A stretch of DNA of 63,930 bases, filler included. It is 8 parts of 8 records of this genome, joined end to end, with 100 filler letters (N's around TTAATTAATTAA, not from the genome) between each part and the next. Parts side by side here need not be neighbours in the genome. Positions count along the whole stretch, not along the records: positions 13,077 to 19,787 come from SRR31156797_25654; 7 more parts are not named here. One strand, written 5' to 3'. The position numbers were made by a program, and so were the translations under genes. Below the pieces are notes generated by a model. That model saw only the letters and a program-made list of their open reading frames with translations. It ran no database searches and was not told the origin of the DNA. Of the stretch, positions 7,312 to 57,405 are shown in pieces. The stretch's first letter is position 1. Each line of letters opens with the position of its first letter.

Positions 7312-7411
7312 NNNNNNNNNNNNNNNNNNNNNNNNNNNNNNNNNNNNNNNNNNNNTTAATTAATTAANNNNNNNNNNNNNNNNNNNNNNNNNNNNNNNNN
7401 NNNNNNNNNNN
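7312..7411. other. Artificial contig linker
   Basis: N-run with a TTAATTAATTAA all-frame stop. Identical linkers at 12977-13076, 19788-19887, 31230-31329, 42855-42954, 50574-50673 and 57305-57404. Confidence 0.98.
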
Positions 7412-12976: not shown

Positions 12977-13076
12977 NNNNNNNNNNNNNNNNNNNNNNNN
13001 NNNNNNNNNNNNNNNNNNNNTTAATTAATTAANNNNNNNNNNNNNNNNNNNNNNNNNNNNNNNNNNNNNNNNNNNN

Positions 13077-13966
13077 CCTATGTCCAGAACAAGTGCATCC
13101 TTGGCCAAACACGATTCAATCCAACCAAGGTTTAACGGATTGGTAAAAGTCTTCGTCTTTGCGGCCTTGTTCCAATACTCGTATTGCGCGCCGAGATTTT
13201 TCGGGGCGTCCGCATGTAACGGGCGCTCGCATACGTAAGCATAACAATTCGGGAAATCGGTATATTTTTGAATGATGATGAACCCGGCTTTTTCGAGCAG
13301 GCTATCCATAACCCAATCAAACGTGCTGAATTCGTCTCGTACATGGATTTCCGTCTCATCCGCCAGTTCGTCTCCGGCCGCATCTCTCATTCCTTCAATC
13401 CATGTGTTGAGTTCATTAATGTAATTTTCCGCGGGAAAAGAAAATACCACGTCAAACAGGTAAAACTTTCCACCCGGTTTTAGCATGTCGTATATTCGGT
13501 TCAGTGCGATCTGTTTCCAAAAATCCGGCAGATGATGAAGCACTGCCTTGGAAGTAATAGCATCCACGGGTTCGCCGGAATGTTCATAGGTCAATAGCCC
13601 GGCATTATGGAAATTAATATTTTTCAGCTCTCTTTGGTCCGCTTTTTTCTTGCATTGGTCGAGCATCGCCTTTGAGATGTCAACGGCATGGACGACTTTA
13701 CAACATTCGGCCGCCTGTATAACAAAGGCGCCGGTTCCGCAACCCAAATCAATAATTTCAACGTCTTCAGCCAGACCAAGCCGCTCGATTACAATTTGGG
13801 CCTCTTTTTCATAATCACGAAATTCCTGGTGCCGGGCGTCGTATTCGTCTGCTGTTTCAACGTTTGAATAGTCCACGCCGACAGATTTAAACTCATTGAA
13901 AAACCAGTTCGGCTTATTATCATTTGCTTTAGTCATCATTTTGATACCCCGTTTTATCAATTCCAT
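13077..13966 (-). CDS. Class I SAM methyltransferase fused to the start of a probable second methyltransferase domain (3'-truncated)
   Basis: IIDLGCGTG and VLHHLPD motifs; ends ...YWNKAAKTKTFT...ALVLDI at the gap. Confidence 0.8.
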
Positions 13967-14328
13967 AAAACCAAGTCCCCTTCATCCTGGTTGAAACATA
14001 GTGTCATAGAATTCGGAGTTTATAAAGCCTAATTGAAAATGATTTTTTAATGGAATTGCCAATAAAGCTTTTGAATAAAAGAAATCCATTACCCCGCGAG
14101 CCATGATCAGCAACAGGCAATGGTTTATAGGCGGACGCTGATTTGAATGTAGCGACAACGTGGATTATCATTCAATATAGAGATGATACATGTAACTGAT
14201 TTAAATTTTCCGGCCGGAAATCCATAGTTGATGCAGCGTTTCATTCCCGTTTTCATTTTGTTTCCAGATAAAGAAGAAATTTCGCTTTGGGTGGAATAAG
14301 TTAAGTTTGCGGAGGGCGAACGGATTTA

Positions 14329-15537
14329 ATGAAACTAAGTAAACTGCTTTTCATAAGCTTCTTTATACTTCTGCTTATGCTGCAGCCTGCCTTGGCGGAA
14401 GACGAACCCAATGTATTGGTCGTAACCAACTCCTCGGGTTGGCTGCCGTTTTCATTTATAAACGAAGACGGCCGCCCAACCGGGCTGCTGATTGATCTTT
14501 GGCGTGAAATAGGCAAACGAACCGGGAAGAAGATAGAGTTTCGGCTGGTCGACTGGAATTTGTCGCTGCATATGGTTCGAACAAAACAAGTAGATGCTCA
14601 TGCCGGTTTGTTTCGGTCCAATAAACGCGAAGAATATATGGATTTCACCCGGCCTATGGAAATCCCCCTGGATACAAAGCTGTTTATCTCCAACAAGCTT
14701 AAAGCAAAGAGTTTTATTGATTTGGGAAAAGTCCCGGTCGGCGTCACCAAGGGCGCCTACGAAGAAGCCTTTGTTCGTGAAAATTACCCGTCAGTAATAA
14801 TGCGTACATTTCCCAGCAGCAAGTTGGTTGTTGAAGCTGCGCTCGCGGATGAGATTTTGGCTTTTGTCATTGATTATCCTTCAGGTATGTATCATTTACA
14901 TAAGCATGGGGCGCCGGAAAAATTCGGCTTTAGTGAAACTCTGTTTACAAAAAAAATCCATGCCGCGGTACCGAAAGGGCAAAAGGAACTGCTTGACTTG
15001 ATAAACCTCGGCATCAGCCGGATACCTGAGGACGAGTTTGAACGAATAACCCAAAAATGGGTTCAATCGGTGACCGTAACTCCCAAGTGGGTGACTCCGG
15101 CATTTACAGGAGTTATAGGCCTGCTCCTGACAAGCCTGTTATTTTTTTTCATCCATACCTTGAGGCGCAAGGCATTATACTTGGCTTCCCTGGAACAGAA
15201 AGTCGACGAGCGCACCGAAGAGCTTCTGTCGTCCAATAAACAACTCCACAAGGAAATCAAGGTTCGCAAGCAAGCGGAGGCGGAAAAGGCCAAATTAATA
15301 GCCGATCTGCAGGAAGCTCTTCAAAAAGTTAAAACTTTAAGCGGCTTGTTGCCCATATGTTCTTCCTGCAAGAAAATCAGGGACGACAAGGGATATTGGA
15401 ATAAAATAGAAGAGTTCATTCAGGAGCACACTCTGGCGGAATTCAGTCACGGCCTTTGTGGTGACTGCGCCGACAAATTATACGGCCGGGAAAAATGGTT
15501 CCAGGACTTGAAGAAAAAACGGGATGAAAGCGAATAA
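14329..15537 (+). CDS. Sensor protein: periplasmic amino-acid-binding (PBPb) domain, TM, coiled coil and Cys-rich C-terminal domain
   Basis: PFSF...GLLIDLW family-3 SBP; C-terminal LPICSSCKKIRDDKGYW...SHGLCGDC. Confidence 0.8.
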   Translation: MKLSKLLFISFFILLLMLQPALAEDEPNVLVVTNSSGWLPFSFINEDGRPTGLLIDLWREIGKRTGKKIEFRLVDWNLSLHMVRTKQVDAHAGLFRSNKREEYMDFTRPMEIPLDTKLFISNKLKAKSFIDLGKVPVGVTKGAYEEAFVRENYPSVIMRTFPSSKLVVEAALADEILAFVIDYPSGMYHLHKHGAPEKFGFSETLFTKKIHAAVPKGQKELLDLINLGISRIPEDEFERITQKWVQSVTVTPKWVTPAFTGVIGLLLTSLLFFFIHTLRRKALYLASLEQKVDERTEELLSSNKQLHKEIKVRKQAEAEKAKLIADLQEALQKVKTLSGLLPICSSCKKIRDDKGYWNKIEEFIQEHTLAEFSHGLCGDCADKLYGREKWFQDLKKKRDESE

Positions 15538-15662
15538 GAGTCTGGACGAAACCTAACCGCCTTTATTAACGGTGTGATTCATCGGCGCTCGAAAAATGTT
15601 ATCTTGGAAGTAAAGACGCCTATGAATCACACTAGACCGTCTCAGGTTCCGAAAACACATTG

Positions 15663-16523
15663 TCAATCCGCCCAAAAATTCCTGGCCAGCGATCTGCGTT
15701 TTTCCCATAAGGATCCTTTTTCGCTGAAACTGCCAATCCCCTGACCGGCGTCGGCGTCGGCCACCTGCCAGAATCCATTGACCGCGCCGCTCAAACCCCC
15801 GGACAGCATTTCAAAACCCTGTGCCGTGTAAAGATCTGTTTCGCAGCCGCGGTTAATGATGAATTTCAACTGCCGGCAAGCCTGTTGGTTCTTTACCCGT
15901 AGCACATCCAGCAGCGCTTCCGTTTCCTCGTCGAGTTTGTCAGCGGACACGACCCTGTTCCACAGACCCCAGTCAACCGCTTTCGCGGCCGGCATTAATG
16001 CCCCGATAATGTTAATTTCTTTTGTCCTGCGTTTGCCTATGTACCTGGCCATGCGCGTCGTGCCGCCCCAACCCGGCGTGATCCCGCTGTCTACTTCAGG
16101 CATACCCCAAATCGCCCTGTCAGTAGCTATTACAAAATCGCAGGCCATGGTTATTTCCAACCCCCCTCCGACGGCATACCCGTCCACCGCGCTTATGGTA
16201 ATCTTGTCAAGCTCTTCCAGTGAATTGGCCATATCCTGGTAAATGCGCACTCTTCGCATGACTCCGTTGGCCCCCTGGGTGCTGTTCCCGTGCTCGTCGT
16301 CCCCCCATCTTATCATTTCCTTAATATCGTCCCCGGCGCAAAATGTATCGCCGGCCCCCTTGATTACGACAAATTTGATATCTGTGGATTTCTTTATTGT
16401 TTGTACGGCTTCAACCAATCGGTCGGACAGTTCAATGCTCAGGGCGTTATTCACCTTGGGCCTGTTAAGGGTAATCCTGGCCGTGTCGCCTTCAAATTTC
16501 AAAAGCAGGGATTCTTCAGGCAT
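15663..16523 (-). CDS. Enoyl-CoA hydratase/isomerase (crotonase) family
   Basis: LNRPKVNNAL, FCAGDDI, GGGLE and PEVDSG motifs. Confidence 0.9.
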   Translation of the reverse strand: MPEESLLLKFEGDTARITLNRPKVNNALSIELSDRLVEAVQTIKKSTDIKFVVIKGAGDTFCAGDDIKEMIRWGDDEHGNSTQGANGVMRRVRIYQDMANSLEELDKITISAVDGYAVGGGLEITMACDFVIATDRAIWGMPEVDSGITPGWGGTTRMARYIGKRRTKEINIIGALMPAAKAVDWGLWNRVVSADKLDEETEALLDVLRVKNQQACRQLKFIINRGCETDLYTAQGFEMLSGGLSGAVNGFWQVADADAGQGIGSFSEKGSLWEKRRSLARNFWAD

Positions 16524-16547
16524 GATTTTCTCCTTTTCTCTGAAAAA

Positions 16548-16607
16548 TAACTTTCGTTTTGCAAGTTAAATCAAGAATAATAAATTAGGTTGCGAATTGC
16601 AAGCTAA
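16548..16607. promoter_or_regulatory. Two imperfect palindromic operators, probably for the adjacent HxlR regulator
   Basis: TAACTT-N9-AAGTTA (16548-16568) and TTAGGTTGC-N5-GCAAGCTAA (16585-16607) share the half-site TTGCAAG(T/C)TAAA. Confidence 0.55.
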
Positions 16608-16646
16608 ATTATTATTATCAATATCAATTGGAGGCTTGATGATAGC

Positions 16647-17096
16647 ATGAAAAATAAAACTGGACATCGTGAATGCTCAGTGGAAAGAACATTAAACGTT
16701 CTTGGAGACCGTTGGATTTTTTTAATTTTACGGGAGGCGTTTTTCAAAGTTCGCCACTTTGACCGGATCCAGGAAAATTTGGGGATAGCAACAAACATCT
16801 TGGCAAATCGGTTGAAAATCCTTGTAGAAAACGGCATTATGGAAAAAACGAAAGACAAGGACGATGCCAGGCGGATAAACTACAGGCTGACGGAAAAGGG
16901 GCTGGATATATATCCAATAGTTCTTGCGCTCATGCAGTGGGGCGACAAGTGGATGGCTGGAGATGCAGGCCCGCCGCTTGCTTTGAAACACATAAATTGC
17001 GGTCATGACCTGAAACCGGTAATGAGTTGCCGTTATTGCGGAGAAGCGGTTTCAGCCAGGGACGTTTGGTATGATGAGGATAAAAATCAATTATGA
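16647..17096 (+). CDS. HxlR-family winged-helix regulator
   Basis: CSVERTLNVLGDRW and YRLTEKG motifs; C-terminal CGH...CRYC. Confidence 0.9.
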   Translation: MKNKTGHRECSVERTLNVLGDRWIFLILREAFFKVRHFDRIQENLGIATNILANRLKILVENGIMEKTKDKDDARRINYRLTEKGLDIYPIVLALMQWGDKWMAGDAGPPLALKHINCGHDLKPVMSCRYCGEAVSARDVWYDEDKNQL

Positions 17097-17755
17097 TGGA
17101 TAATGCTCTTGAAATGGCCGACCACATCCTTGGGTTGGCGGGTGATATATGCGGCGCCGTGCTGGAAATAGGTTGCGGCGACGGGAGGATCACTGGTCTT
17201 ATTTATGATCGGTTTGATTTGCTTGTAGCCGTTGACCCTGTACGTGATGAAGTTGTCAAGGCTAAGGAGTCAAACTCAGGCGCCGAATTCACCATGGCTT
17301 CCGGCGTGAATCTACCCTTCAGGGATTCAATATTTGATTTGGTTATTTTCTCCCTGTCGCTTCACCACCAGGATAGTTCGGGCGCTTTGAATGAAGCCGG
17401 TCGGGTATTGAAGGAAAAAGGGCGGATTCTGGTTGTGGAACCGGCCGTTGACAGCGAGTTCGAAAGGCTTTGTTTTCTGTTTCATAATGAAAAGGAAGAC
17501 CTGATTAACGCCAGGGCATGCATTTTCAATTCTGATTTTGAAGCGGAAAAGGATGAAGTCGGCGAGACGCACTGGTCATTCGAAAACAAGCATTCTTTGC
17601 ACGAATGGCTGGCGGCCTTTTATGGATTAAAAAATGATGCTGTTCTATCTGAACAGGTTGCCGGCTTCCTGGGGGCGCGGACTAAAGAAAGCCCATTGAT
17701 TATATCTGATGATTTGTGTTTGACTTTGCTGCGCAAAACCGCCGGGAATGATTAA
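17093..17755 (+). CDS. Class I SAM-dependent methyltransferase
   Basis: VLEIGCGDG, LPFRDSIFD and SLHH motifs. Confidence 0.85.
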   Translation: MMDNALEMADHILGLAGDICGAVLEIGCGDGRITGLIYDRFDLLVAVDPVRDEVVKAKESNSGAEFTMASGVNLPFRDSIFDLVIFSLSLHHQDSSGALNEAGRVLKEKGRILVVEPAVDSEFERLCFLFHNEKEDLINARACIFNSDFEAEKDEVGETHWSFENKHSLHEWLAAFYGLKNDAVLSEQVAGFLGARTKESPLIISDDLCLTLLRKTAGND

Positions 17756-17836
17756 CAACTTTAGCCGGCCGGCGCCGTAGGATTAATTTGACAGGTGAAA
17801 TTAATTACTCGCCGATATCATGGAGAACGGCTCAAA

Positions 17837-18583
17837 ATGAAAAAGCTGATTGTTAAAATACTGGGCAATGGCGGTTGTCTCAACAAGGGATTGCCCTATA
17901 ACTCCTTTCTGATAAACGGCCGCATCCTGGTGGAAACTCCTCCGGATATCATGCTTTCTCTGCAAAACCTGGGCGTGGATTTTGCGGGTATCGATACGAT
18001 CTTTATTTCTCATTTTCATGGAGATCATACCTTCGGCCTGCCTTTTTTTGTCATAAATAAGTGGCTTATAAGTCAGTCTGAAGGAAATGATTCTTCATTG
18101 TCAATCGTCGGTCCCGCCAATATCGGACATTACGCTAAGAAGCTGACCGAGGCCGCATTTTCAGTTGATCATCCCTGTTATGACTGGCTGGAAAGAAACA
18201 GTCGGTTTATTGAAATCGGCAATGATTTTAAAACCGTAATAGATGATCTTGATTTGTCCTGCTTTCCCGTAAAGCATATCGAACATACTTACGGCTTCTT
18301 GTTAAAGGCCGGAGGTAAAAATCTGTTTTCCTATATTGCCGACACATGCTGGTGCGATCAGGTTGACCGGATTTTGGATGAAAAGCCGGAAGTCGTTTTG
18401 ATGGACATGAATGGAGGAAATCCGGATATTCACATTTCCCTTGCCGAAGTTATGGAAAAAGGACTGCCGAGAACCGGGGATAATACAGTGTACTACGGCG
18501 TTCACCTGGCCGAGGAATTCGATTCGCCTTCAAATATCATAAAATGCGCCAGGCCCGGGAAGGAAATAGTTATTTCATATTAA
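17837..18583 (+). CDS. MBL-fold metallo-hydrolase (RNase Z-like)
   Basis: SHFHGDH motif, VKH and YIADT. Confidence 0.85.
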   Translation: MKKLIVKILGNGGCLNKGLPYNSFLINGRILVETPPDIMLSLQNLGVDFAGIDTIFISHFHGDHTFGLPFFVINKWLISQSEGNDSSLSIVGPANIGHYAKKLTEAAFSVDHPCYDWLERNSRFIEIGNDFKTVIDDLDLSCFPVKHIEHTYGFLLKAGGKNLFSYIADTCWCDQVDRILDEKPEVVLMDMNGGNPDIHISLAEVMEKGLPRTGDNTVYYGVHLAEEFDSPSNIIKCARPGKEIVISY

Positions 18584-18849
18584 TTACTTGGCAGCCATAG
18601 GCGTCCTTAAAAGGACGCCCGCCTTCCGGGCGCCGGCGTTTTTATCGCCTGCTCTCTCTTCCTTAACCAAAGATTTACAATTTATTCATCATAAAAAATC
18701 ATAGCCTTACACAGCTAACCCATACTTGTTAAAAATGACGCAGGCGTGTCGACTTAATCATGGTGAACGCTGATGTTTTTCTTGACCTGTCTAGAGCTTC
18801 ATAGTTTAGGCTGGGAAAATAGAAAACCAGGATTTTAGGAGGCGGACCA

Positions 18850-19611
18850 ATGAAAAACAAACTGATGATCGGTCTGTGGCGTTACATAATAAACATACCC
18901 CCCTTTCTATGGGAAAAGCAGATAGCCAAGGCCCAACGAAAATTTCGGAAGGAAATCGGGTTTATGACCCGGGAACACCGACTTGTTCACCATTTCGTTG
19001 TTCGGGAACTCCTGTTAGCCGGCGCACCCTTGTCTCCCGATTTCGCGGCTGACAAGTTAAAAATGCCCCTGAATGATGTAAAAAACATACTGGACGACCT
19101 GGAAAAGAACATGACTTATTTATACAGGAACGGCCGGGGAGAAGTTGTCTGGGCCTATCCGGTCACGGTTGAAAAGACGCCCCACCGGGCGATTTTCAGT
19201 TCCGGTGAAGTGCTATACGCTGCCTGAGCAGCTGATGCATTTGCCACGCCCTTCGTGCAAGGGCGCCTGAGAAAAGAAAAACTATCGGTAAAAATATCAA
19301 CCGAATGCGTTCATTGCCGTGAATCCATGGAAATTGAAATTGACAGCGACCTCAATTATAAAGCCGGCCCCGCCGACTGCAATCCGATTATTTTTGTTCC
19401 TCACGTGGATTTATTCAAGCTGGACGACGACAGTATTATCGATTCTTTCTGAAAGGAATGCGTCTTCTTCCGGTCGGAAGAACATGCCAGGGAATACCGG
19501 GCCAAAGATCATCGCCTTAAAGGCGCCTATTTAAGCGCCGACCAGATGGTTATGGGAACCAGGCTGATTCAAAGCGCCATATTTGGTTTTGACAGGCTGA
19601 ATGAATCGTAA
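18850..19611 (+). CDS. MerB (organomercurial lyase)-like selenoprotein with two Sec residues (U126, U201), 253 aa
   Basis: ORFs 18850-19227 and 19255-19452 share one frame and are interrupted only by TGA at 19225 and 19450; the frame continues to TAA at 19609-19611. LYAAUAAD matches MerB LYAWCALD, and DSFUKECVFFRS matches MerB QSFCCHVHFFAS. AGGAGG RBS at 18837. Confidence 0.88.
19247..19265 (+). promoter_or_regulatory. Putative SECIS element 1
   Basis: Stem CGCCCTT/AAGGGCG with loop CGTGC; 26 nt lie between the UGA at 19225-19227 and the loop. Confidence 0.7.
19465..19482 (+). promoter_or_regulatory. Putative SECIS element 2
   Basis: Stem TTCTTCC/GGAAGAA with loop GGTC; 19 nt lie between the UGA at 19450-19452 and the loop. 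Confidence 0.78.
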
Positions 19612-19651
19612 AACTGTCTGAATTGATTATTTATATTTGCTTTTTTCATTG

Positions 19652-19768
19652 TAGGGGCGCTCCTCGGCGGGCGCCCACTTGATTCTGTTCAACATGCCTT
19701 TTTTCAATCGATTATGAACGAAAACCCCTAAATGCAGGTTCTCGTTCCTGGGCTCCCGCCCGGGAACG
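19652..19768. repeat. REP-like palindromes
   Basis: GTAG-GGGCGC-N10-GCGCCC (19652-19677) and CGTTCCTGGGC-TCCC-GCCCGGGAACG (19743-19768), next to the contig end. Confidence 0.5.
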
Positions 19769-20585
19769 CACTGTCTTGGCGGCTCCGNNNNNNNNNNNNN
19801 NNNNNNNNNNNNNNNNNNNNNNNNNNNNNNNTTAATTAATTAANNNNNNNNNNNNNNNNNNNNNNNNNNNNNNNNNNNNNNNNNNNNAGAAAAACATCGC
19901 CCAAACGGGGGAGAAACAACAAAAAAAGGACATTAATCAAGAGATTAAGAAGGATAGGACGATGTTTTTTGCCGCGAATAATTGACAGCCTGAAATACCG
20001 GGAAGGACAGTTCATAACAGGGTCATCACATTAAAACGCCTGACTTTTTTACAAAAAATGCAATTATTATCACTTACCTTGTTATAGAATTCATGCTAAA
20101 TATACCTGGCTTTATGCGATCAACAAACGGGGATTAAATATTTAAAAGAGAAATCTAAACTAATTATCAGGATGGGCAGAAAAACAATCGGAAACCATTG
20201 ATTTTGAGAAAGGCTAGTGGGGAAAATGACGGCCATTCACCGATCTTCAAAAAGGCTCGATCAATACCAATATTTGCATCTTGAAGCAAAAGAGGCACGG
20301 AGTGAGCAGGGCCACCCCATTGAAAAGCTGCTCCAGGCTTTTTTCTTTTATACAAAACTGATGAAATCAGCTCAAACCTATTCAATTATTGGGGGCATGC
20401 CGGAAATTGTTGAAAAACATTCCCCCCGGAAAGACATCATAGCAATCAACTATGTATTCGAAAGCCTAATCGTTTTTTATCTTGATGACCTTAAGGGAAC
20501 AATCTTATCGCAGGGCAGGATATTAGGGATGATTCGGTGTAAAACCCTGGGTTAGAATTTAAACGTTCGGAAACGGAGGGGTGTC

Positions 20586-42853: not shown

Positions 42854-42954
42854 ANNNNNNNNNNNNNNNNNNNNNNNNNNNNNNNNNNNNNNNNNNNNTT
42901 AATTAATTAANNNNNNNNNNNNNNNNNNNNNNNNNNNNNNNNNNNNNNNNNNNN

Positions 42955-50501: not shown

Positions 50502-50673
50502 TTAATAACTTTTTTGAAAAAACTTTTGTAATGGTTGAAATCATTTTAACCTGAAAAATTCATGAATTTTTCANNNNNNNNNNNNNNNNNNNNNNNNNNN
50601 NNNNNNNNNNNNNNNNNTTAATTAATTAANNNNNNNNNNNNNNNNNNNNNNNNNNNNNNNNNNNNNNNNNNNN

Positions 50674-57304: not shown

Positions 57305-57405
57305 NNNNNNNNNNNNNNNNNNNNNNNNNNNNNNNNNNNNNNNNNNNNTTAATTAATTAANNNNNNNNNNNNNNNNNNNNNNNNNNNNNNNNNNNNNNNN
57401 NNNNC

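Follow-up and report, generated by a model that had tools for sequence, protein, structure and literature searches.

A MerB-like gene with in-frame UGA codons at both metal-binding cysteine positions: a predicted double-selenocysteine branch of the MerB superfamily

To our knowledge, no enzyme other than MerB has been found to cleave the carbon-mercury bond, a reaction in which an active-site aspartate serves as proton donor. The MerB active-site residues are Cys96, Asp99 and Cys159, as given in the available part of the SaoL preprint (Haft & Gwadz, bioRxiv 10.1101/2022.07.06.499078). According to the same part of that preprint, SaoL is a protein of about 213 amino acids (aa) with one selenocysteine (Sec), located in a Cys-Sec (CU) dipeptide, and with a cysteine kept at the Cys96 position, and it is encoded in a nine-gene sao operon together with an ABC transporter, SaoT, SaoE and others; the wording "two selenocysteine" found there refers to the SaoP permease (bioRxiv 10.1101/2022.07.06.499078). 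NosL, a Cu(I)-binding lipoprotein, is named in the accessible part of a demethylation review as the only other protein known to possess the MerB fold, and the same part of the review states that the pathways of methylmercury degradation by organisms of anoxic sediments which lack mer operons "remain to be investigated". Here, a gene is described which lies at positions 18850 to 19611 of a DNA stretch of 63,930 nucleotides (hereafter the window, which consists of eight contigs strung together, with positions counted along its whole length) and which is predicted to encode a MerB-like protein of 253 residues with Sec at both metal-binding positions. The overall best explanation, to which a probability of roughly 0.78 is assigned, is that of a double-Sec selenoprotein of the MerB superfamily, which would function as a carbon-metal lyase and would be controlled by a regulator.

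A single reading frame with two conserved in-frame UGA codons

The gene starts with an ATG at 18850 and continues in a single frame to a TAA at 19609-19611, with in-frame TGAs at 19225-19227 (codon 126) and 19450-19452 (codon 201) and no other interruption. Under translation table 11 this frame is split into an open reading frame (ORF) of 125 aa (18850-19227), a second one of 65 aa (19255-19452) and an uncalled tail. An earlier sequence-only reading of the window had proposed exactly this arrangement, namely one frame broken only by the TGAs at 19225 and 19450 and closed by the TAA at 19609, and translation bore it out, including the residue strings LYAA-U126-AA-D129, TE-C153-VH-C156 and IIDSF-U201-KE-C204-VFFRSEEHAREY, all of which are present in the product. 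Relatives were sought in three scans of species-representative genomes, which yielded 271, 272 and 387 confirmed relatives (roughly 270-390 species-level genome matches per scan) and for each of which 80 loci were kept; the resulting 240 loci were aligned to the window protein and correspond to 201 distinct genes. A scan of genome contigs with the single protein gave no match, and it was the alignment-based scan that found the relatives. The features of the gene, with counts referring to an alignment of 81 genes and to the 201 distinct genes, are as follows:

18850..19611, + strand: complete coding sequence, stop codon included, of the predicted 253-aa double-selenocysteine MerB-like protein (from the frame, Pfam MerB and conservation through both TGAs)
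18837..18842, + strand: Shine-Dalgarno-like AGGAGG, 7 nt 5' of the ATG (read from the sequence)
19165..19566, + strand: Pfam MerB domain (PF03243), residues 106-239 (E=1e-14, 55 bits, cut-off 27)
19225..19227, + strand: UGA-1, predicted Sec126, on MerB Cys96 by alignment (TGA in 81/81 aligned and in 199/201 distinct genes, the other 2 having Cys codons)
19234..19236, + strand: Asp129 codon GAT, on MerB Asp99 by alignment (Asp in 200/201 distinct genes)
19306..19308, + strand: Cys153 codon, on MerB Cys117 by alignment (nearly invariant in the family)
19450..19452, + strand: UGA-2, predicted Sec201, on MerB Cys159 by alignment (TGA in 81/81 aligned genes and in 199/199 distinct genes that reach the site)
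19655..19676, + strand: terminator-like GC-rich hairpin, 44 nt 3' of the stop codon (pattern match only)

The sequence-only reading had further assigned the protein to the MerB family and had placed its UGAs on both metal-binding cysteine positions with the aspartate kept, and both assignments held: the Pfam MerB search of the read-through protein scored twice its cut-off (55 bits versus 27), and alignment of an 81-member family profile to MerB from the Protein Data Bank (PDB) paired U126 with Cys96, D129 with Asp99, U201 with Cys159 and C153 with Cys117, the MerB residue numbers being counted from chain coordinates. When compared with all PDB chains, this profile matched only MerB and MerB2 (E 5.7e-7 to 1.1e-4). 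The core aligns with MerB from about residue 52 to 236 and is preceded by a conserved, family-specific N-terminal stretch of approximately 45 residues. The cut-offs of the NCBIfam MerB models NF009710 and NF033555 were not reached (52.6 versus 193 bits and 45.3 versus 200 bits), and the matches of all 81 family members to these models were weak (best E 5.9e-19 and 1.6e-15). With regard to the MerB triad Cys96-Asp99-Cys159, the positions coincide and the aspartate is kept, both cysteines being replaced by Sec codons in 197 of 201 genes; the predicted Sec-Asp-Sec triad would be chemically analogous, albeit not identical, to that of MerB.

Within the first scan the codons at site 1 and site 2 were TGA/TGA in 80/80 loci. 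Among the 201 distinct genes, 197 possess TGA at both sites, two combine TGC or TGT at site 1 with TGA at site 2, and two end before site 2. Pairwise differences at codon positions 1/2/3 amounted to 0.34/0.25/0.58 before TGA-1, to 0.32/0.22/0.54 between the TGAs and to 0.29/0.24/0.55 after TGA-2 (81-sequence alignment), i.e., coding constraint is equal before, between and after both TGAs. The expectation that homologues carry TGA or TGY at these sites with conserved sequence beyond them was hence confirmed, and so was the claim that the TGAs do not represent random nonsense, for which the conservation past each TGA and the freezing of synonymous sites described below speak as well. A MerB-like gene that had acquired two random nonsense mutations would likewise present a frame broken twice under table 11 and shortened by gene callers, but both TGAs are common to 197/201 distinct genes from several phyla, purifying selection is equal after each of them, and each is followed by a hairpin of the selenocysteine insertion sequence (SECIS) type with frozen synonymous sites, so that a pseudogene is considered exceedingly improbable. 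Even less room is left for the assumption that TGC/TGT or TGG was misread as TGA during sequencing or assembly. This possibility had been raised in the sequence-only reading and was looked at in sequencing runs: a possible source run (X1, depth ~45) is identical to the window, a 20-kb contig of another study (X2, depth ~49) keeps both TGAs in spite of 21 other differences over 945 nt, a third run (X3) keeps the second TGA, and homologues in hundreds of assemblies agree.

Database entries of the family mostly mirror the action of standard gene callers. A word search yielded 85 homologues, 54 of which stop immediately ahead of residue 126 and six immediately ahead of residue 201, the latter with Cys (five) or Arg (one) at site 1; another 20 are full length with Trp at both Sec sites (P0002-P0022 and others). 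The exhaustive profile search returned 1024 matches at E<=1e-3, and of the best 150 cluster representatives, which were examined, 91 stop short of residue 126 and a further 10 short of residue 201. The prediction that standard annotation misses the gene thus proved correct, as most database copies end at the first UGA (54/85 and 91/150). Cys at site 1 followed by a stop at site 2 occurs in 5/85 and 7/150 of these database proteins, and Cys at site 2 occurs in a few full-length relatives; judged from these alignments, Cys and Sec appear to interchange at both sites. Rare full-length relatives with Ser or Gly at site 1 and Cys at site 2 were also found (proteins P0087, P0091, P0095, P0090, P0092 and others), and the same protein group includes more distant relatives devoid of both ligands and of the aspartate; these proteins appear to be side branches of the family that have degenerated and are probably not catalytic.

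The Trp-bearing copies would be in line with an organism in which every UGA is decoded as Trp or Gly (code 4 or 25), but they seem to stem from gene calling on short metagenome contigs under a TGA=Trp table and would hence be a silent source of database error. Moreover, the alternative residue at both sites is Cys and not Trp, and a third TGA serves as true stop in 44/80 homologues, the length of which is uniform (~250 aa). TGA also terminates 12/50 ORFs of the window, including the crotonase gene (15663-16523) and the HxlR gene (16647-17096) of the same contig, both of which encode complete Pfam domains; their ending in TGA had been pointed out before and was verified at these coordinates. 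As carrier genomes in addition possess tRNA-Sec as well as SelA and SelB with frames free of internal stops, a genome-wide reassignment of UGA is regarded as just as improbable as a pseudogene. With two UGAs being read as Sec and one as stop in one mRNA, only the downstream hairpin would tell them apart.

SECIS-like hairpins and the selenocysteine machinery

According to the available part of a 2026 selenoproteome review, bacterial SECIS elements possess (i) a loop of 3-9 nt with a G in its first two positions, (ii) a stem of 4-16 bp, (iii) a distance of 16-37 nt from the UGA and (iv) a minimum free energy (MFE) of <= -7.5 kcal/mol. Two hairpins of the window, one behind each UGA, show all four of these published features:

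19247..19265, + strand: SECIS-1 hairpin CGCCCUU-CGUGC-AAGGGCG, 7-bp stem, 5-nt loop, G at loop position 2
19460..19487, + strand: SECIS-2 hairpin GCGU-C-UUCUUCC-GGUC-GGAAGAA-C-AUGC, 7-bp upper and 4-bp lower stem, 4-nt GGUC loop

SECIS-1 (+23..+41 after UGA-1, UGA-to-loop distance 26 nt, MFE -9.8 kcal/mol) lies over the codons for T-P-F-V-Q-G-R, and SECIS-2 (+11..+38 after UGA-2, UGA-to-loop distance 19 nt, MFE -12.2 kcal/mol) over those for V-F-F-R-S-E-E-H. The GGUC loop of hairpin 2 resembles that of the fdhF SECIS. Both hairpins were predicted unprompted by RNAalifold, and an MFE of at most -7.5 kcal/mol was obtained for hairpin 1 in 77/81 and for hairpin 2 in 72/81 sequences. Paired cells made up 96.2% (hairpin 1) and 98.0% (hairpin 2) across the 81 sequences, as compared to 32-64% when the 3' partners were slid. 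Most hairpin pairs never vary, so that covariation is thin; the closing pair of hairpin 2, however, is U-A in 61, C-G in 14, U-G in four and unpaired in none of 79 distinct rows. The window itself belongs to the C-G type, which is formed by Arg CGG and Ser UCG in place of Trp UGG and Ser UCA.

Since the hairpins overlie the conserved peptides PFVQG and FFWSEE, a control was needed in which the protein is constant. The ten amino-acid-invariant columns within the hairpins had a codon diversity of 0.09, as compared to 0.56 for the 20 such columns outside them (Mann-Whitney p=8.3e-6). At three hairpin positions Phe is encoded by TTC in 81/81 sequences, as opposed to TTC:TTT ratios of 47:34 and 42:39 elsewhere, and within the hairpins Gly138 is always GGG, Val136 is always GTG and Pro134 is CCC in 80/81. 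As synonymous codons are frozen within the hairpins, selection acts on the RNA itself, and the alignment suggests that codon choice in the PFVQG and FF(W/R)SEE motifs is set by them.

The tRNA for Sec (61-77 bits, cut-off 47), SelA and SelB were found in 5/5 carrier genomes examined, namely three complete Syntrophales-type chromosomes, one Nitrospirota and one Anaerolineales genome, and the SelA and SelB frames of carrier genomes are without internal stops. All seven PF03243 matches in these five genomes hold two in-frame TGAs. Two genomes (G003 and G004, loci L039 and L022) harbor two paralogues of the double-Sec MerB-like gene each. It is proposed that UGA126 and UGA201 are read as Sec, whereby each hairpin would recruit SelB with Sec-tRNA(Sec), giving rise to the full-length protein of 253 residues. 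Taken at the level of comparative genomics, the gene is almost certainly an intact double selenoprotein gene of the MerB superfamily and not a pseudogene.

Hosts, gene neighborhood and proposed function

The gene usually appears to form a single-gene unit directly behind its own MarR- or MerR-type regulator, which would make it probable that a small-molecule or stress signal switches the gene on and that it does not belong to a mer operon. A regulator, located directly upstream on the same strand, is the only recurrent neighbor among the 80 loci (MarR-type in 20/80, MerR-type in 18/80, and in addition at locus L042). A crotonase-like gene was found beside 2/80 homologues and a sigma-54 activator beside 1/80. 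That the gene is stand-alone, as assumed in the sequence-only reading, is supported by the lack of sao or mer genes and of a conserved operon around the 80 loci. In the window, an HxlR-type regulator is found three genes upstream:

16647..17096, + strand: HxlR-type regulator, same contig, upstream
17093..17755, + strand: SAM methyltransferase, same contig, its start overlapping the HxlR stop
17795..18583, + strand: MBL-fold hydrolase, same contig, just upstream of the selenoprotein gene

These three genes may be co-transcribed with the double-Sec gene. For the methyltransferase (17093-17755) the best NCBIfam match was the DVU_1556 family (45.8 bits, cut-off 155). The idea that the window neighbors constitute a conserved operon was rejected, as HxlR, methyltransferase, MBL-fold and SBP genes were found beside 0/80 homologues. 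No mer-operon genes (merA/merR/merT/merP) are present on the contig of the window gene.

This contig covers positions 13077-19787 only. The eight contigs of the window are separated by seven N blocks, each consisting of 44 N, TTAATTAATTAA and again 44 N, which constitutes an all-frame stop linker:

7312..7411: linker block
12977..13076: linker block
19788..19887: linker block
31230..31329: linker block
42855..42954: linker block
50574..50673: linker block
57305..57404: linker block

Gene order across the linkers is consequently artificial, and since the contig ends at 19787, the sigma-54 activator and glycine-cleavage (GcvP) genes beyond it are not neighbors of the double-Sec gene. The final 50 nt of the contig (19736-19787) contain a GC-rich palindromic element (CTCGTTCCTGGGCTCCCGCCCGGGAACGC) which occurs once in the window and at which the depth in the possible source run rises from ~45 to 760-1200; it hence represents a multicopy repeat, which probably broke the assembly. 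This element was not found in Desulfospira joergensenii.

Desulfospira joergensenii is the closest named relative of the other contigs of the window and possesses SelA and SelB. A GcvPB-like protein encoded on another window contig (24338-25897) shares 93% identity with its counterpart from Desulfospira joergensenii DSM 10085; the matches ranking next (73-77%) carry the labels Acidobacteriota and Syntrophomonadaceae, an unusual range for a glycine-cleavage subunit. As a stand-in for the source organism Desulfospira joergensenii was rejected, because it has neither the gene, nor synteny with the gene's contig, nor the contig-end repeat; the absence of the gene from it marks the gene as accessory. 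The labels of the best 80 loci comprise 63 Desulfobacterota-type ones (Syntrophales/Smithellaceae, Desulfomonilaceae, Desulfobacterales, Desulfarculales and "delta proteobacterium"), three Nitrospirota, three Chloroflexota, one each of Abyssobacteria, Omnitrophota and Bacteroidota, and eight bins with vague or probably wrong labels, and later scans added many Anaerolineae, Acidobacteriota and Ktedonobacteria. Together with the GcvPB identity, the 63/80 Desulfobacterota-type loci agree with the host proposed earlier, i.e., a Desulfobacterota-type anaerobe. In a quick tree the window copy groups with two Desulfarculales-type copies (SH-aLRT 95), and this group sits in a clade of 34 rows which also holds a Nitrospirota group, a placement that indicates a patchy distribution. 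Judged from these labels, the double-Sec MerB-like protein appears to be widespread in oxygen-free habitats and strict-anaerobe lineages.

A sample of 151 genomes from the class of one carrier (G001) contained a MerB-family gene in 23 genomes (~15%), and of the 26 matches obtained, 21 hold two TGAs, two hold one TGA (partial matches) and three hold none. In two genomes of this sample (G016 and G033) a distinct gene of the MerB family occurs, the frame of which is open over ~300 aa and contains no TGA; it could serve as a Sec-free comparator. The mercury methylation gene hgcA co-occurs with the TGA-type gene in 17/21 carriers as compared to 66/130 other genomes (odds ratio 4.1, Fisher p=0.010, a statistic which ignores relatedness and genome completeness), and this co-occurrence is taken as a weak lead for a link to mercury. 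Across the class sample hgcA (NF040863) was above cut-off in 83/151 genomes, and mercury methylation capacity is thus very common in this class.

For the protein's function, a mechanism modelled on MerB is proposed. The two selenolates and Asp129 would form a MerB-type site, in which the selenolates would clamp a soft metal or metalloid bearing a carbon ligand, with methyl- or aryl-mercury as model substrate. Asp129 would then protonate the carbon, the hydrocarbon would leave, and the metal would stay on the Se-Se pair until handed to a thiol or another acceptor. Capture at trace concentrations would be possible, since selenolates exist in ionised form at neutral pH and their affinity for soft metals exceeds that of thiolates. 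Carbon-metal(loid) lyase activity is favored by the near-invariance of Asp129 (200/201); as a tentative assignment derived from sequence comparison, it is placed somewhat short of an even chance.

Several observations weigh against the reading of the gene as a double selenoprotein with lyase function. A tRNA search of the window found none, and Desulfospira joergensenii gave neither a protein match nor a PF03243 match. Rfam at gathering score matched no family in the whole window, and on the gene region at E up to 10 it returned two noise-level matches only. Single-sequence folds of the 60 nt past each TGA were no stabler than shuffles (z -0.27 and -0.55), so that the case for the SECIS elements rests on comparative data. 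Both genes with Cys at site 1 (L172 and L279) retain hairpin 1, and with only two such genes, both keeping the hairpin, this natural control cannot separate RNA from protein constraint. With regard to classical mercury resistance, no merA/merT/merP/sao genes were present among the clustered neighbors of the 80 loci, the eight MarR-type neighbors examined contain no Cys, the MerR-type ones lack a conserved Cys set, and the regulators match metal-sensor models over the generic helix-turn-helix only and far below the cut-offs, so that no metal-sensing subfamily was assignable. Finally, release of a Se-Hg-Se product would presumably be very difficult, and an acceptor is not evident.

A rival explanation is a real double selenoprotein that is not a lyase, i.e., a soft-metal- or Se-binding protein or chaperone, or a diselenide redox protein, for which the MerB scaffold would provide the binding pocket. 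Regulators of the MarR, MerR and HxlR types often answer to oxidants or electrophiles, and mer partner genes that could accept Hg are lacking. The motif at site 2 is U-x-x-S in most homologues, and the window protein shares U-x-x-C with a minority of them. Precedents for metal binding come from NosL, the Cu(I) binder named as the only other MerB-fold protein in the accessible part of the demethylation review, and from MerB itself, which, as stated in the available part of the SaoL preprint, binds other metals and becomes a copper binder upon one residue change (bioRxiv 10.1101/2022.07.06.499078). Against a non-lyase function it counts that Asp129, which is kept in 200/201 genes, would be unneeded for dithiolate-like binding or a diselenide couple, that the cysteine of the U-x-x-C motif is not conserved, and that the entire MerB core aligns, beyond the two ligand positions. 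Such a non-lyase role is viewed as a serious competitor, which is nonetheless less probable than the carbon-metal(loid) lyase.

A MerB relative with both ligands replaced by Sec would be a clonable candidate for mer-independent chemistry or for other soft metal or metalloid handling. The more specific idea, that it serves anaerobes as a Se-based organometal lyase for cleaving methylmercury, or some other organometal(loid) of natural origin, at the trace concentrations present in sediments, is speculative and held to be unlikely. If true, it would represent a missing enzyme of mer-independent demethylation. Given that the family extends across Syntrophales, Desulfobacterales, Nitrospirota and Anaerolineae and is often accompanied by hgcA, many 'methylators' would then have the reverse reaction under their control, too. 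For selenium biology, the protein would be one of the rare instances in which a single active site has a pair of Sec residues as its ligands, and its gene would provide two clean examples of SECIS hairpins dictating the codons of conserved peptide motifs. Nearly all database copies are shortened, split or Trp-mistranslated, and surveys of mercury-cycling genes and of selenoproteomes consequently miss the family.

Comparison with known systems

The 81 members match no NCBIfam model (release 20.0) other than those for MerB and SaoL, and in the available Table 1 of the 2026 review, which comprises 119 families and subfamilies, the only MerB-like entry is SaoL. The suggestion of the sequence-only reading that a two-Sec stand-alone family might be new is in keeping with the absence of such a family from both collections. 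In the full-text literature a link between MerB and selenocysteine was found only in the SaoL preprint and two reviews, while supplementary tables, which lay outside this search, could list the family under another name. A plasmid search for bona fide MerB or SaoL gave two weak MerB-like matches only (E 3e-4 and 0.6).

NosL, which acts in nitrous oxide reductase assembly and is not known to contain Sec, provides a precedent for a non-catalytic, metal-binding use of the MerB scaffold, albeit by analogy only; a Pfam scan of the window protein at E up to 1 gave no match to any NosL family.

SaoL is the closest described relative with regard to Sec usage. Like the double-Sec family, it is, according to the available part of the preprint, a selenoprotein of the MerB superfamily which occurs in anaerobes, carries Sec at the Cys159 position, retains the aspartate and has database copies that end at the UGA. 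These shared traits, in combination with a weak match to the SaoL model NF040728, would allow for the window protein being a plain SaoL family member. The match, however, reached 43.3 bits as compared to the cut-off of 140 (best E among the 81 members 2e-15), the SaoL cut-off was reached in 0/201 sampled genomes of the carriers' phylum, and no sao genes are nearby. While SaoL possesses one Sec in its CU dipeptide and Cys at the Cys96 position, as far as described in the available part of the preprint, the window protein has an F-U dipeptide and a predicted Sec at site 1, too, and the family members are of ~250 aa and are encoded behind a MarR- or MerR-type regulator. Membership in SaoL is therefore deemed very improbable, if slightly less so than a pseudogene, and the distinction from SaoL drawn in the sequence-only reading was sustained by score, by the missing CU motif and by the locus.

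With MerB (EC 4.99.1.2; PF03243; PDB 3F0P, 3F2G and 1S6L; MerB2 5C17) the double-Sec family has in common the Pfam domain, the active-site positions and the Cys117 position. The proposed chemistry is likewise alike, as in both cases two chalcogenolates would hold the metal and an aspartate would give the proton. In contrast to MerB, the double-Sec family is predicted to have Sec for both ligand cysteines, its similarity to MerB is remote, and it carries the additional N-terminal stretch of ~45 residues; its gene is found without a mer operon, and its hosts belong to strict-anaerobe lineages. On this basis, the family would constitute a widespread branch of the MerB superfamily that carries two Sec and has so far escaped cataloguing; MerB-like selenoproteins as such are already known through SaoL.

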